DNA of 49,784 nt from Candidatus Fraserbacteria bacterium (GTDB lineage Bacteria; Bipolaricaulota; Bipolaricaulia; RBG-16-55-9): the NCBI GenBank assembly GCA_037443265.1, contig JBBIOR010000007.1:1-49784 (forward strand), in the 5' to 3' direction. A program made the position numbers. Below, one piece after another: positions 9,001-18,000 of the stretch. Every line of letters begins with the position of its first letter. The stretch's first letter is position 1.

Positions 9001-12000
9001 AGGCCGGCCTGAAATATTTCTTGCTGGGAGCCTTCTCCAGCGCGCTCTTTCTCTACGGGATTGCGCTCGTGTATGGGGCGACCGGGACGACCCAGCTGGA
9101 TGCCCTCCCCAAAGCGCTCTGGGAGGCTATGGAGGGGACCCCGCTTCTGCTCTATGCAGGTGTGGGATTGCTTCTGGTGGGTCTGGGCTTTAAGGCCGCG
9201 GCGGTCCCTTTTCATACTTGGGCTCCGGATGTCTATGAAGGAGCGCCTACTTCGGCCACGGCCTTCATGGCGGTGGCTGCCAAGGCCGGAGCCTTCGCGG
9301 CCCTCTTGAGAGTCTTTGCCTTCGCGTTGCCGGCGCTGGCTGAGAGCTGGGCCTCTCTCATTGGGGTCCTGGCCGTGCTCACGATGATTTTGGGCAACGT
9401 CGTGGCCATAGTCCAGCTCAATCTCAAAAGACTCCTGGCGTATTCGAGCATCGCCCATGCGGGCTATCTGCTCATCGCCGTGGCCTCTGCCCAGAGTCCT
9501 GTGCTCATGGCACCGGCTACTTCTAGCTTGCTTTTTTATCTGCTCGTCTACACGCTCATGACGCTGGGCGCGTTTGGGGTGCTCATGTTGGCTGAAGGCC
9601 AGGGCGAAAATCTTTCACTCTCCGATCTATCCGGCCTGGCGACGCGCCATCCTTGGGCGGCCGCCTCTATGGCCCTCTTTATGATCTCGCTTGCCGGGCT
9701 TCCCCCAACGGCGGGCTTCTTCGCCAAATTTTATGTGTTTAGCGCGGCGATCCAAGCGGGTGAGTGGGGGCTAGTTCTCATCGGCGTGCTCACCAGTGTG
9801 GTCTCCGTCTATTATTATTTGCGGGTTGTGTATTTTATCTATATGCGCCCGGCGACGGTCGAGCGCCCCCTGCACGTCTCCTCACTGGCTCTTTTGGGAC
9901 TGGCTCTGGCGGCCCTGGGAGTGCTCGTCCTGGGGCTCTACCCTCCGCTGGCACTAAGCTGGATCGCGCAGATCCTCCGCGCGCTCCCTTAGTTGGAGCG
10001 CTCTTCTTCTCTGTGCTATAGTGAATCCATGCTCATTGGTGACCTCATGACTCGGGATGTGCTTACTGCCCGAGAGGATGAGACTCTCATGACGGCCATG
10101 CGGCGGATGCTCTCTCAGCGCCTCGACGGCCTGCCCGTGGTCGACGGCGAGGGCCGCCTGAAGGGCCTCTTGGAGATCGATGATCTGCTCCCCAAGCTCG
10201 AGCCCGTCCCCTTCTCTGAATTGGCTGCGCTCAAGCTCTTCGATGAGTGGGTGGATGAGAACAATCTGGAAGGCTTCTATCAGCAGTACCAGAAGATGAG
10301 CGTGGCGAAGATGATGCGTCCGAATGTGGACGTCCTCTCCCCAGAGGACTCCCTGTCCAAGGCCCTTCATCTGATGGCCAGAAGCGGCGCGCGCCTTCTG
10401 CCGGTGGTCGGGGAGGAGCAGCGGCTGGTAGGCGTCCTCACCCGCAGCGATATCTTACGCACGCTCACCCGCACAGAGAGAGAGAGAGGAGTATGAACAC
10501 CGCCGCGCACCTTTTGGAGCTCTTCTATCTCTTTTTGGCCGCCTCTCTTTTGGGCTGGCTCTTTCGGCGCTTTCAGCAGCCGACGGTAATCGGCCAGATG
10601 CTCGCGGGCATCCTGGTGGGCCCGGCCCTCCTGGGCCTCGTCCATGAGGGCGAGATTCTAGAATTTCTGGCCGAGATGGGCGCGGTCTTTCTGCTCTTCC
10701 GCGTGGGTCTGGAAATCCGCTTCAAGGACATCCTCTCCGTGGGCCGCGAGGCCTTCTCAGTAGCCATAATCGGCGTGGCTCTTCCGTTCTTGGGAGGCTA
10801 TCTTTACGGGGGCCTGATCGGCTTCGCTCAATTGCCGGCACTCTTTCTGGGGACGGCCCTGGTGGCCACCAGTGTAGGCATCACCGCAGCGGTTTTGCAA
10901 GAGCTGGGCGTCCTCTCCCGCTCTTATAGTCGCATCATCTTGGGAGCGGCCGTCATTGATGACATCCTCGGGCTGATCGTATTGGCCATCGTCTCGGGGG
11001 TGGCCCAGGCCGGCGTCGTGGACGTTGGATCGATCCTTAAGCTCAGTCTGCTCTCGCTGGCCTTCGTGGGCGGTGCAGCGCTGCTGATCTCCGTGATCCG
11101 TCATCTCCCGCTGGATCGAATCCCAAACCCGTACAGTTTTGCCCTCGTCTGGGGCTTGGGCCTCTCTGCCCTCTCTGCAGCCATAGGATTGGCCCCCATC
11201 GTCGGAGCGTTCTTAGCCGGCATGATCCTCGCGGAAGTCCGGGAGCAGCACGATCTCGATCAGCCTGTCGCAGCCGTGGAGTCATTTCTCGCCCCGATAT
11301 TCTTTGCCATGGTGGGCGTGCGGCTGGAGCTGGCCGTCTTTGGGGATCTTAAGATCCTGGCCGCCGGGGCCATGGTGAGCCTGATTGCCATCCTCGGAAA
11401 ACTTCTGGGAGGCCTGGGAGCACTCACCCAGGGCCTCCGCGAGATGGTGCTCGTGGGCACCGGCATGGTCCCCCGGGGTGAGGTGGGCCTGATCGTGGTA
11501 GCCATTGGGCTTTCGGCAGGGGCGGTCGTTCAGGAAGAATATGCCATTGTGCTTTTTATGGTGGTGGTGACCACGCTCTTTGCGCCTCTGGCTCTGCGCT
11601 TGCTCATCCACCGTCTGGAGGGTCAGAAGGAGAGGGCACCGGAGCCCGCCCCCGCAGACTAGTCAATGTCCAGCTCTTTGCCGTCGGCGTTGTAGGCCCT
11701 AAACGAGAGTGCCAGGCTCTTCAGTTCTTTGACGAGCACGCGGAAGGACTCGGGCAGGCCCGGCTTGGGGTACTCTTCGCCCTTGAGGATCGCTTTATAG
11801 AGCTTCACCCGCCCTTGTGGGTCATCGCTCTTGAGCGTGAGCATCTCTTGCAAGGTGTGCGCAGCCCCATAGGCCTCTAGAGCCCAGACCTCCATCTCGC
11901 CTACGCGCTGGCCGCCCAGACGAGCCTTTCCGCCCAGCGGCTGCTGCGTGATGAGTGAGTACGGCCCCGTGGAGCGGGCGTGGACCTTCTCATCCGCGAT

Positions 12001-15000: not shown

Positions 15001-18000
15001 ATAGGGAAGCTCTAAGACCGGTTTGACCCGGCCGTACGAACGCCTCTGCCTCACGGATTCTCTCCTCCTAGGGTGTTGGGCAGGGATGCTCTATTGCAGC
15101 TCGACTTCCGCGCCTAGCTGCTCTAACTGGGCCTTGAGCTGGTTGGCCTCCTCCGGGCTTAGGCCGTCTTTGACCACCGCGGGCAGCGCATCCACGAGCT
15201 CCTTGCACTCCTTTAGACCCTTGCCCGTAATGTCTTTGATCTTCTTGATGAGCTGGACCTTCTGCTGGCCCGCGTTCTTGAGGACGACCTTCACCGTCGT
15301 GGGCGCCGCAGCCGGTGCCGCTCCTCCTGCTGGGGCGCCCGCGGCAGGCACGGCGGCTACAGCCACGGCCGCCTGCGCGCTCACCCCGTACTTCTCCTCC
15401 AACGCTTTTACCAGCGCATGGAGGTCCTTCACCGTCATGCCGTCAATGGCCTCGAGAATCTGCTCCGCTGTCATCGTACTCATCTGTGAGGCTCCTTTCT
15501 CCTGCTCAGGGTCAGGGTCAAGTTGAGTTTGCTCCTTCTTCTTCTGCTGCTCGATGGCGTGTAAGGCCACTGTGAGTTTGCGCCAGAGGCCGCCCAGAGC
15601 CGTGGCTAGCCCCCGAATGGGGCTCTGGAAGGCTCCGGCCAAGCGGGCCAAGAGCTCCTCGCGGGTAGGCAGCTTGGCCCATTCTTCCACCCCGTGGGCA
15701 TCGACCAGCGACCCCTCGATCACCCCGCCCCGAATCTTGTACTGCTCAAATCTTCTGGCGACGGCCACCGCGAGCTTAACGGCCAATGAGGGGTTGTCAT
15801 AGCCAAAGCAGATGCCCGTAGGGCCCTCCAAGAGCGGCTCGATCTCGATTCCGGCACGAGCTGCGGCCAGCTTGGCCAAGCGATTCTTCACCACACGATA
15901 TTCCAGGTGATGACGCTTCAGTTCCCGGCGGACTTCCACCATGTCGCCGGAGGAGAGCCCGCGGAACCCTGTAATGACAAGGGCCTTCGCACGCTTGAAT
16001 CTCTCTTCCAACTCCTGGACTTGACGTTCCTTCTCGGCCGTAGGCATCTTAGCTTAGCTTAGCTTAGAGCCTCCTCTCCGCCACCCGTCGGCTCACTTCA
16101 TCCGGGTCGAGCTTGATCCCCGGCCCCATGGTGGAGGAGATCGTCACCCTTCTTAGATAGCGGCCCTTCACATCCTGGGGCTTCTCCTCGAAGAGGGCCG
16201 AAGCCAGCGCCCAAAAATTTTCTAATAGCTGCTCCTCCGGGAAGGAGACCTTGCCGAAGGGCGAATGAATCTGCCCATACTCATCCAGGCGAAACTCCAG
16301 CTTCCCCTGCTTGAGTTCTTTGATGGCTTGGCCGATGTCTCTGGTGACCGTGCCCGTCTTGGGCGAGGGCATCAGGCCTCGGGGACCCAGAATGCGCCCC
16401 AGGCGGCTGACTACGCCCATCATCTCCGGCGTGGACACCACTCGATCGAAATCCATCCAGCCCTCTTCGATCTTCTTGACGAGATCCTCGCCGCCGGTGT
16501 AGTCCGCCCCGGCCTCCTCGGCCTCCTTGAGAGCTTCCCCCTTAGCAAAGGCTAGCACCTTAACGCTCTGGCCCGTGCCGTGGGGGAGAGTTACCGTCCC
16601 GCGGATCCGATGTTCGTTCCTCTTGGGGTCGACTCCCAGTCGAAACGCGGCTTCGGCCGTCTCATCGAACTTGGCCGTGGCACACTCCTTCATCAGACGG
16701 ATCGCCTCTTCGACGGAATAGCACCGACTGCGATCCACTCTCTCCTTGACCGCCAAAAAGCGCTTTCCATGCTCCATAGTTTACGCACTCTCCACGATCT
16801 CAATGCCCATGTTGCGGGCCGTGCCCGCGATGATCTTCATGGCAGCCTCAAGATTATCCGTGTTGAGATCGGGCAGCTTCATCTCGGCGATCTTCTTCAG
16901 TTGCTCGCGGGTGATCTTGCCCACCTTCTGCGCGTTCGGAACTCCAGAGCCCTTGGGCACTCCAGCGGCCCGCTTGAGGAGCTCACTGGCCGGCGGCTTC
17001 TTCAGCACAAAATCGAAGCTCTTGTCGATATAGACGGAGATCTGGACCGGGATGATCAACCCCTTCTCCATCTCTTTGGTGGCCTCGTTGAACTTCTTGC
17101 AGAAGTCCATGATGTTCACTTTGTGCTCGCCCAGGGCCGGACCCACCGGCGGAGCCGGGGTCGCTCCCCCAGCCGGGATCTGCAATTTAATCACGGCTTC
17201 CACCCTCTTGCCCGGTGCAGGCATGATATCCCTCTCCTCAGCTTAGAGCTTCTCGATGCCCTCGAAGCCCAGCTTCACAGGCGTCTCGCGCCCGAAGATC
17301 TTGACCATGACTGTGACTTCCTCTTTCTCCTTGTTGATCTCAACGATCTCGCCCGTAAAGTCCGCAAACGGACCTTCGACGATCTCCACGACTTCCCCCA
17401 CCTCGAAGTCCACCTCAATCACTGGGCCTTCGCGCTTGGGCGTAGGAGTCTCCAAGAAGCCAGCCTTGCGCTTGACGACTTTCATCTCTTCCTCCGGGAC
17501 CGGAAGAGGCGGATTGCCCACGAAGCGGGCCTTCAACCCACTGACCAGTCCTAACACCTCCTCGCTCATCTCCAGCCGGGCGAAGACGTAGCCGGGGAAG
17601 AGTCTGCGTTTTTCAATGCGCTGGATCGTGATCACGCGCTTGTCTTTGTACTCTTTGACCTTGACCATGCCTGAGGCCTTGGACTCGATGCGATCTTCTT
17701 TTTCTAGCAGATCACCCTTCTTGAGCGGCAGGCCCTCCTTGAGCTTGACCAGATATCTTTCGGGGATCTCTTCGATGACCCGCTCGCCGTCTGGTTTTTC
17801 TAATGTGATGCGCTTGACGCGCGAGCGCTCAACCACTTTACCCTTCACTTTCGTGAAGAAGTGCGGGTCGCGATCACTCGTCAGCGGCACGTTCGCCGGC
17901 ACTTTCTCGCCTACGCGAATGTCCCGACGGATGCGCTTCTCCTCCGGGATTTTGTAGATTTCTTCATTGCGATTCGTCAGCTCAATGATCACCCGCTGGA

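Follow-up and report, generated by a model that had tools for sequence, protein, structure and literature searches.

An old, phylum-wide separation of rpoB and rpoC in the Bipolaricaulota

The rpoB-rpoC pair is regarded as being among the most stable prokaryotic gene neighborhoods. The usual reason given for the linkage is that β and β′ are made together, in equal amounts, and near enough to assemble. Lineage-wide changes in how the subunits are encoded, such as the rpoBC fusion in Helicobacter and Wolbachia or the division of rpoC into rpoC1 and rpoC2 in cyanobacteria, have been used as rare genomic markers. The available portion of a 2025 preprint terms the rpoB-rpoC locus universally conserved, and full-text searches of the literature gave us no report of a bacterial rpoB/rpoC split. 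Among chloroplasts, Table 4 of PMC1513399 lists the derived clusters rps3-rpoC2 and rpoBb-rpoBa-/psbF-psbL for Scenedesmus/Chlamydomonas. For the Asgard lineage, the accessible text of PMC10833476 describes the str/L30e cluster, with homologs of rpoB and rpoA, as dispersed in two complete Heimdallarchaeote genomes.

We analyzed a 49,784-nt stretch (the window) of a Candidatus Fraserbacteria genome (Bipolaricaulota; 44 contigs, 88% complete) that contained one rpoB locus, on the window's contig C7, and one rpoC locus, on contig C5. rpoB was a single 1131-aa ORF with a GTG start (11659-15054, minus strand), and its chain carried Rpb2 domains 1, 2, 3, 4/5, 6, and 7, six Pfam families that all scored above cut-off (RNA_pol_Rpb2_6, E 8e-126). 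The genome-wide survey's note had placed rpoB at the close of an rplK-rplA-rplJ/L-rpoB row followed by a convergent Na+/H+ exchanger gene, and ORF coordinates and Pfam matches agreed on both points. The genes rplK, rplA, rplJ, rplL, and rpoB were contiguous on one strand (11659-17224) with gaps of 3-36 nt, and the exchanger gene, rather than rpoC, lay directly downstream of rpoB (Table 1). The rplJ/L frame encoded L10, then the L7/L12 N-terminal and C-terminal domains; it was stop-free between the two parts, and AAGGAG preceded an internal ATG. In 24/25 other rpoB loci of the phylum, rplJ and rplL were separate frames. Between 10400 and 16200 we found no promoter-like site, and terminator-like sites were not above chance (3 vs 4.9 expected). 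rpoB is presumably co-transcribed with rplJ/L. An E. coli-type attenuator needs more room than the spacer between these frames.

Table 1 Features around rpoB in the window.
Feature	Position	Strand	Basis
CBS-domain protein gene, upstream of exchanger gene	9993..10496	+	PF00571, E 5.6e-30
Na+/H+ exchanger gene, convergent with rpoB	10493..11662	+	PF00999, E 7.9e-62
rpoB/exchanger 3′-end overlap, 4 nt (breakpoint side of rpoB)	11659..11662	.	ORF coordinates
Spacer from rplJ/L frame to rpoB, 36 nt	15055..15090	-	Coordinates
rplJ and rplL in one frame, 318 aa	15091..16047	-	PF00466, PF16320, PF00542
rplA (L1)	16064..16777	-	PF00687, E 4.5e-63
rplK (L11)	16781..17224	-	PF00298, PF03946
nusG, 361 aa, inserted NusG_add domain	17243..18328	-	PF02357, PF18298, PF00467
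secE	18338..18532	-	PF00584, E 1.6e-16
tRNA gene between tuf and secE	18552..18624	-	Rfam RF00005, 68.6 bits
tuf (EF-Tu), heads row	18827..20089	-	PF00009, PF03144, PF03143
Three tRNA genes upstream of tuf	20091-20162, 20208-20290, 20294-20365	-	Rfam RF00005

On C5, rpoC (51504-56477, minus strand) was a complete 1657-aa ORF with its own start and Rpb1 domains 1-5 in a single chain (PF04997, PF00623, PF04983, PF05000, PF04998). As the survey had it, uvrD lay upstream and rpoC headed rpsL, rpsG, and fusA; the distance to uvrD was 230 nt, and rpsJ, rplC, and rplD came next. The rpsL-rpsG-fusA order was kept (locus L004, 4345-7416, minus strand), and rpsJ (L004, 4037-4345) came directly after fusA; tuf was not there, being located upstream of secE-nusG in the rpoB row.

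The survey's note had called the split old and phylum-wide from 6 genomes. We compared the positions of both genes in 124 of the 184 genomes of the phylum (PF00562 occurred in 179/184 and PF00623 in 178/184). None of the 124 had adjacent rpoB and rpoC. The genes were unlinked in 88/124, covering 44/54 genera and 11/11 families, while contig geometry does not decide linkage in the other 36. Four genomes carried both genes on one contig and the same strand, at distances of 669 kb (G006), 501 kb (G005), and 348 kb (G128) in single-contig genomes and 67 kb on a 193-kb contig. The three single-contig genomes are those that the survey had cited for a separation by hundreds of kb, which was correct, but they represent two families instead of three because G005 and G006 share one genus. 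In 84 further genomes the split was evident from a contig that ran beyond the partner gene's expected place or from direct reading of the sequence at that place.

Loci read directly comprised 26 for rpoB and 21 for rpoC, from all 11 families (f1-f11, with the window in f1). The record titles of two of these loci name other phyla. rplJ/rplL-rpoB was kept in 26/26 rpoB loci, with nusG-rplK-rplA upstream to the limit of the available DNA, and in 25 loci the DNA past rpoB could be followed for 1.7-11.7 kb and contained no rpoC. rpoC-rpsL-rpsG-fusA was kept in 19/21 rpoC loci; in family f3, rpsL-rpsG-fusA was not behind rpoC.

Fragmented or chimeric metagenome assembly, or wrong binning, might produce an apparent split, as most genomes of the phylum are metagenome bins of tens to hundreds of contigs and the host genome is itself fragmented and incomplete. 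However, the three single-contig genomes and the 193-kb contig carry both genes far apart, the 84 further genomes and the 25 rpoB loci read downstream point the same way, and the rpoC context in this genome is common to its relatives. A 9842-nt contig from a second assembler (run X1, possibly the source sample, so that the contig is not independent DNA) spanned 9000-12868 and crossed the window junction with 0 differences, and the junction is therefore not a misjoin. We give an artefact next to no chance. As a change of gene order, the separation of rpoB and rpoC is real, old, and phylum-wide, a statement that does not extend to functional consequences.

The separated rpoC had the features of a gene in its own right. 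ORFs were complete in 21/21 loci (1632-1692 aa), the conserved RpoC N-terminus began a few codons past an in-frame stop in 20/21, and GAGG/GGAG motifs stood upstream of the start. In the window's genome, a promoter was predicted ~200 nt upstream of rpoC (TTGAAA-16-TATACT with TG, 10/12 matches; L004, 12712-12685, minus strand), where chance expectation for a site of such quality is 0.1. Judged by its N-terminus, frame limits, GAGG/GGAG motifs, and this predicted promoter, rpoC is an independent gene.

New neighbors recurred at both break ends. Depending on the family, rpoB was followed by a NUDIX gene, a CitMHS transporter, an aminotransferase, an FAD oxidase, or the convergent exchanger. The NUDIX gene (PF00293) came directly after rpoB in 16/26 loci from eight families (f2, f3, f4, f5, f6, f9, f10, f11) and was absent there in 10/26, including all of f1, f7, and f8. 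All 16 proteins matched PF00293 and had 33-69% identity to the first sequence in the alignment. Their profile (n = 16) matched the solved structures of CT771 (4ilq, 2.1e-30), human NUDT2 (3u53, 3.6e-29), and the Aquifex Ap4A hydrolase (3i7u, 6.6e-24), with these matches spanning almost the full length; no NCBIfam equivalog was hit at cut-off. By fold, box, and full-length likeness the predicted product resembles asymmetric Ap4A hydrolases.

Upstream of rpoC, a zinc-ribbon gene was present in 18/21 loci from ten families (f2-f11) and absent in 3/21. In one locus the two genes overlapped by 4 nt, and in six others 11-48 nt separated them. Eight of the zinc-ribbon proteins scanned passed the PF09723 (Zn_ribbon_8) cut-off, and the two CxxC pairs (C8, C11, C29, C32) were invariant in 18 sequences. 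hpf and an NFACT-R-like gene also occurred upstream of rpoC in 15/21 loci, with hpf absent in f2, f3, and f4. The window's own family had neither the NUDIX gene after rpoB nor the zinc-ribbon gene before rpoC. The neighbors singled out by the survey, the exchanger and uvrD, do adjoin the two genes here, but the exchanger protein was found in 0/25 further rpoB loci whose downstream sequence could be read, and uvrD, conserved only in part, preceded rpoC in 7/21 loci.

Different genes behind rpoB in different families, together with later reshuffling near rpoC (the loss of rpsL-rpsG-fusA from this place in f3 and of hpf in f2, f3, and f4), would fit several independent splits, the phylum pattern then being convergence or repeated rearrangement. 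Against this, no genome compared retains an unbroken pair, and the same derived neighbors occur in different taxonomic orders, the window's order among them (NUDIX in eight families, zinc ribbon in ten). Neighbors recurring on both break ends are the expected remains of a single old event and later local erosion, and we consider independent splits very unlikely. The junctions conserved across orders on both break ends point to one ancient rpoB/rpoC break.

The outgroup comprised 74 genomes, mostly Bacillota and Actinomycetota with 2 Synergistota and 1 NPL-UPA2, none of them proven sister phyla. All 74 retained an rpoBC pair, also those with the closest RpoB sequences from outside the phylum (47-59% identity), and rpoC started 67-620 nt past rpoB in 72/74 loci. 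The two exceptions, both Bacillaceae (L025, L057), proved to be additional, stand-alone copies of rpoB; a normal rpoB-rpoC pair is present in the same genomes. With the pair kept in the outgroup and derived junctions conserved on both sides, the split is old, and with 0/124 adjacent pairs the survey's reading from few genomes now extends across the phylum. In the 74 outgroup loci, the DNA up to 10 kb from rpoB contained none of the junction genes, and for this reason the path of the rearrangement is not reconstructable.

The split might instead predate the Bipolaricaulota or recur in unsampled bacterial lineages. The outgroup covers few phyla, and the chlorophycean and Heimdallarchaeote cases, as far as the accessible text of those papers goes, show that homologous genes, or a whole str/L30e cluster, can disperse. 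Yet the intact pair in every outgroup genome, the preprint's description of the locus in its available portion, and the lack of a bacterial case in our full-text searches make a split that is not phylum-specific unlikely.

We infer that, in all likelihood, a single ancient rearrangement in the Bipolaricaulota stem lineage split rpoB from rpoC. It would have cut the rpoB-rpoC spacer and broken the ancestral row secE-nusG-rplKAJL-rpoB-rpoC-rpsL-rpsG-fusA-S10... into two blocks, inherited separately since. The first would comprise tRNAs-tuf-tRNA-secE-nusG-rplK-rplA-rplJ-rplL-rpoB, followed ancestrally by the NUDIX gene at 0-4 nt or overlapping. The second would be rpoC-rpsL-rpsG-fusA-rpsJ..., preceded ancestrally by hpf, a gene with NFACT-R/ThiI-like domains, sometimes uvrD, and the small FmdB-like zinc-ribbon gene; ancestral here means present in several orders as labelled, not mapped on a family tree. 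Family f1 would subsequently have lost the NUDIX and zinc-ribbon neighbors, and rpoB in this genome came, on this model, to abut the exchanger gene. β would then be the final cistron of a putative L10/L12 transcription unit and β′ the first large cistron of a putative str/S10 unit, with its own start codon and a strong predicted ribosome-binding site. The balance of β and β′ could be secured through ribosomal-protein units under common growth control rather than by co-transcription.

That a whole phylum keeps these genes at distances of tens to hundreds of kb shows the linkage to be dispensable in nature. As a clean, rare genomic change, the split is a marker of the Bipolaricaulota and can flag mislabelled bins. 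It also offers a natural test case of how cells that lack the operon balance and assemble the subunits, and supplies two candidate accessory genes, NUDIX and zinc ribbon. No isolate of the phylum is known to us. More speculatively, and with only a small chance of being right, the Bipolaricaulota may be the sole bacterial phylum to have done without an rpoBC operon from its beginnings, and both small junction genes may be lineage-specific RNA polymerase partners. If so, the zinc-ribbon protein could aid folding or docking of β′, with β being made elsewhere, and the NUDIX enzyme could strip dinucleoside-polyphosphate starts or caps off transcripts. The split itself is a gene-order fact, and we claim no physiological effect.

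Compared with the canonical row, the two halves retain the same genes and inner order (tuf-secE-nusG-rplK-rplA-rplJ-rplL-rpoB and rpoC-rpsL-rpsG-fusA-rpsJ-rplC-rplD), but the rpoB-rpoC link that is regarded as fixed there is cut in the Bipolaricaulota, with the halves 67-669 kb apart. Unlike the canonical str operon (rpsL-rpsG-fusA-tuf), tuf in this genome heads the first half. In Helicobacter, Wolbachia, and cyanobacteria the genes stay adjacent or in one frame, whereas in the Bipolaricaulota they are separated. The Bacillaceae L025 and L057 resemble the Bipolaricaulota in having an rpoB without rpoC behind it, but their genomes carry two rpoB genes and a normal pair, in contrast to the single rpoB and single rpoC of the Bipolaricaulota. 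The Heimdallarchaeote dispersal belongs to another domain and is not phylum-wide, and the accessible text of PMC10833476 is not explicit about the place of rpoB relative to rpoA1. The chlorophycean chloroplasts, going by Table 4 of PMC1513399, likewise have rpoB and rpoC2 in different clusters and are a precedent for unlinked RNA polymerase genes. They are, however, organelles in which rpoB and rpoC1 are fragmented and the genome as a whole is heavily reshuffled, whereas in the free-living Bipolaricaulota the genes are intact and the ribosomal rows otherwise conserved.

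The genome-wide survey's note had placed rpoB at the end of an rplK-rplA-rplJ/L-rpoB row with a convergent Na+/H+ exchanger gene next to it, and the coordinates and Pfam domains bear this out: rpoB was the final gene of a co-directional row (see table). Ahead of the exchanger gene came a CBS-domain gene and, before it, a nuo row (nuoA, B, H, J, K, L, M, and N; 2365–9992, plus strand), with nuoC, D, E, F, G, and I absent from between these genes. The rpoB-exchanger junction is not a misjoin, because a 9842-nt contig produced by a different assembler from sequencing run X1 spanned window positions 9000–12868 with zero differences; X1 is possibly the source sample and its DNA is not independent. 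A search for a terminator after rpoB returned three terminator-like sites in 10400–16200 against 4.9 expected, and no Rfam families beyond the four tRNAs were found in the window or in L004, the stretch of contig C5 that carries this genome's rpoC. NusG of the rpoB row was 361 aa long and had a NusG_add domain (PF18298) inserted between its NGN and KOW parts. Elsewhere in the window, G+C dropped from ~0.60 to 0.49–0.50 at 36675–40356 (minus strand), and this stretch is possibly acquired DNA since its four ORFs (196, 288, 237, and 325 aa) matched no Pfam family. A 538-aa ORF with no Pfam match also occupied a stretch of 0.70 G+C at 46463–48079 (minus strand).

Features of the rpoB and rpoC loci in the window, its genome, and other genomes of the phylum
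Feature	Location	Strand	Remarks
Na+/H+ exchanger gene	window 10493-11662	+	convergent with rpoB; stop regions overlap by 4 nt
rpoB	window 11659-15054	-	single ORF, 1131 aa, all six beta-subunit Pfam domains
rplJ and rplL, one frame	window 16047-15091	-	36 nt before rpoB
rplA	window 16777-16064	-	rpoB row
rplK	window 17224-16781	-	rpoB row
nusG	window 18328-17243	-	rpoB row
secE	window 18532-18338	-	rpoB row
tRNA	window 18624-18552	-	between tuf and secE
tuf	window 20089-18827	-	same row, after the three tRNAs
Three tRNAs	window 20365-20091	-	start of the co-directional row ending in rpoB
rpoC	C5:51504-56477	-	1657 aa, all five Rpb1 domains
NUDIX gene	L086-L102, L005, L006, L009, L010; e.g. L093 9453-9890	+	directly after rpoB
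Zinc-ribbon gene (PF09723, FmdB-like)	L106-L124; e.g. L113 6821-7048	+	directly before rpoC
rpoB and rpoC, genome G006	669 kb apart	same strand	single contig, 1.70 Mb
rpoB and rpoC, genome G005	501 kb apart	same strand	single contig, 1.32 Mb
rpoB and rpoC, genome G128	348 kb apart	same strand	single contig, 1.73 Mb
rpoB and rpoC, genome G175	67 kb apart	same strand	contig of 193 kb

The window's genome (1.69 Mb in 44 contigs, 88% complete) contained a single locus each for rpoB and rpoC. The note's description of rpoC on C5, heading rpsL-rpsG-fusA with uvrD upstream, agreed with our reading of that locus, in which uvrD ended 230 nt upstream and rpsL, rpsG, fusA, rpsJ, rplC, and rplD followed. 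The beta' subunit was long throughout the phylum (1632–1692 aa). In this genome (L004 7505–12478, minus strand) Pfam Rpb1 domain 1 matched as two halves with a gap of ~240 aa between them, and residues 1188–1303 had weak Peptidase_M23 and RPOC_hybrid matches, which suggests that beta' carries lineage-specific insertions.

To place the split in the phylum we used 184 genomes of one class, 11 families (f1 to f11, the window belonging to f1), and 54 genera. The nearest RpoB-encoding loci were labelled Candidatus Bipolaricaulota or Acetothermia, apart from two with other phylum labels, and four of them, recognized by identical contig numbers and coordinates, lay in genomes assigned to the window's phylum. 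Of the 184, 179 genomes had the rpoB domain PF00562 and 178 had the rpoC domain PF00623. Both positions were compared in 124 of the 184, drawn from the best 150 matches per domain plus five further genomes, and rpoB and rpoC were adjacent in none of the 124. Four genomes had both genes on the same contig and strand, the rpoC block preceding the rpoB block in the reading direction. In 83 further genomes the genes were on different contigs and the contig extended beyond the place expected for the domain of an adjacent partner (a minus-strand rpoB with its start past base 3000, or a plus-strand rpoC with its start past base 4000), and in one more, G093, the 7 kb read past rpoB showed the genes to be unlinked. 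The genes were thus unlinked in 88/124 genomes, representing 44/54 genera and 11/11 families; the contig criterion did not decide the other 36.

As an outgroup we took 74 loci from other bacteria, labelled mostly as Bacillota and Actinomycetota with two Synergistota and one NPL-UPA2, each with as much as 10 kb of flanking DNA on either side of rpoB. With RpoC of the window's genome as query, a same-strand gene was found 67–620 nt after rpoB in 72/74 outgroup loci, and a match after rpoB in 0/6 loci of the phylum. The two exceptions, L025 and L057 (both Bacillaceae), had no masked bases and carried unrelated genes after rpoB. Neither is a split pair: each genome had two rpoB genes and one rpoC, and it was the other rpoB copy that rpoC followed, at ~1.6 kb. 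Since L025 and L057 are extra copies, the rpoBC pair was kept in 74/74 outgroup genomes. These stand-alone second copies were full-length, at 1180 and 1181 aa, respectively.

Gene order was read in 20 rpoB and 20 rpoC regions from all 11 families, to which were added L004, the window, and five of the six nearest loci. In the sixth, L008, the DNA ended 174 nt past rpoB, so that it served for upstream gene order only. The interiors of the two blocks were conserved. The rplJ/rplL-rpoB order was kept in 26/26 loci, preceded by tuf-nusG-rplK-rplA to the extent that the available DNA covered them, and rpoC-rpsL-rpsG-fusA was kept in 19/21. Family f3 was without the rpsL-rpsG-fusA part, the row there having broken a second time at a later stage; its two loci (L107 and L108) had an ndk gene before the zinc-ribbon gene.

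The flanks at the cut ends were likewise conserved, in an arrangement that this window does not have. Immediately 3' of rpoB, 16/26 loci had a same-strand gene of 138–168 aa, at a distance of 0–4 nt or overlapping in 15 loci and at 170 nt in one. All 16 products were NUDIX proteins (33–69% identity to the first in the alignment), distributed over eight of the 11 families (f2, f3, f4, f5, f6, f9, f10, and f11). Their profile matched solved asymmetric Ap4A hydrolases at full length (4ilq, 2.1e-30; human NUDT2 3u53, 3.6e-29; Aquifex 3i7u, 6.6e-24), and no NCBIfam equivalog was reached at cut-off. The next gene encoded a CitMHS transporter, or else an MBL-fold gene and priA followed. On the other side of the break, a same-strand zinc-ribbon gene of 71–117 aa preceded rpoC in 18/21 loci (f2 to f11, 10/11 families). 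In one of these loci the two genes shared 4 nt, and in six others a gap of 11–48 nt lay between them. The protein has the N-terminus MP.YRY.C..CG and also carries KGSGFY.TDY; eight of these proteins passed the Pfam Zn_ribbon_8 cut-off. Farther upstream, 15/21 loci had hpf together with a gene whose product has NFACT-R and ThiI-like domains, and in 7/21 uvrD lay between these genes and rpoC.

Both derived junctions, rpoB-NUDIX and zinc ribbon-rpoC, occurred in the window's order and in other orders, and each of f2 to f11 kept at least one. Because they recur across orders and families, the data fit a single stem-lineage break whose junctions were later eroded locally. The note had held the split to be old and phylum-wide from a handful of genomes, and this stands: none of 124 genomes had the genes adjacent, the 88 unlinked cases reached all 11 families, and the derived junctions were found in several orders. 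Observation and interpretation both hold, on broad evidence.

The window's own family is the eroded case. No NUDIX gene followed rpoB in 3/3 f1 genomes read and no zinc-ribbon gene preceded rpoC in 2/2. One f1 member kept the CitMHS transporter gene, which in f2 and f6 sits after the NUDIX gene. The convergent exchanger gene was found in this genome only among the loci read; in a sister genus nuo genes were likewise convergent with rpoB at this spot, with another gene intervening. Searching the window's genome, at 88% completeness, for a NUDIX orthologue yielded nothing beyond a 31% match spanning 103 aa of contig C28, and no zinc-ribbon homologue was found there.

As for the path of the rearrangement, no homologues of the zinc-ribbon, NUDIX, HPF, NFACT-R-like, or UvrD proteins were found within 10 kb of rpoB in the 74 outgroup loci (E ≤ 1e-4). 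Because rpoB and rpoC share a strand in 4/4 same-contig genomes, a simple inversion placed symmetrically about the origin is an unlikely route. Replichores were estimated from dnaA positions and from GC skew, sampled at 20 stretches of 20 kb in each genome. In G006 rpoC and rpoB were on opposite sides of the inferred terminus, and G005 was less clear, the skew being weak at 68% G+C. The rpoB row appeared head-on to replication in both, again on a weak signal; since the two genomes are of one genus and the skew is weak, we draw no gene-dosage conclusion.

The window's rplJ and rplL formed a single frame of 318 aa with no stop between the L10 and L12 parts. Free L12 is probably still made, because AAGGAG lies 8 nt upstream of an internal ATG at residue 189. 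A second joined frame was found in L099 (family f8), and the other 24/25 loci had separate frames. Fusion as a phylum-wide trait is ruled out by its presence in only 2/26 genomes; the joined frame is either a sporadic stop loss or a 1-nt assembly error.

The conserved RpoC N-terminus began a few codons after an in-frame stop in 20/21 loci, with a GAGG or GGAG motif ahead of the start; by these sequence signals rpoC is a free-standing gene. In the window's genome a strong promoter-like site (TTGAAA-16 nt-TATACT with TG; 10/12 matches against 0.1 expected) spanned the uvrD stop ~200 nt ahead of the rpoC start. The 211-nt leader there folded no better than shuffled sequences (z = 0.62), and no promoter or leader was shared between families, whose 160 nt ahead of rpoC varied because different small genes occupy that place. 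Beta would most likely be the last cistron of the L10/L12 transcript, given the 36-nt gap after rplL and no promoter-like site in window 10400–16200. Both subunit genes would still lie inside ribosomal-protein units, and so their supply could stay growth-coupled without co-transcription. On the boldest reading, polymerase partners might be encoded by the NUDIX and zinc-ribbon genes that flank the break, and an Np4N-cleaving enzyme could conceivably be linked to RNA polymerase. A predicted complex of the zinc-ribbon protein with beta' residues 1–900 scored 0.00 in two runs without controls, which bears neither way on binding.

A 2025 preprint describes rplKAJL-rpoBC as universally conserved with minor variants only. 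Among the papers listed that name the phylum along with rpoB or rpoC, the gene is mentioned nine times at most, and one of them uses both as marker genes (PMC4791363). Full-text searches, which took in few subscription journals and no supplements, found no published report of an rpoB-rpoC split in bacteria or in this phylum. The split is interesting both as a marker and for the natural experiment it offers, and by itself shows no new mechanism. Related dispersals are described in two other reports: rpoB and rpoC2 lie in different derived clusters in chlorophycean chloroplasts (PMC1513399), and the whole str/L30e cluster is dispersed in two Heimdallarchaeote genomes (PMC10833476). The breakpoint is of a kind known from organelles, whereas here it is a trait of a whole bacterial phylum; this gene-order change at an old breakpoint is new as a phylum-wide bacterial trait, at a pair usually treated as inseparable.
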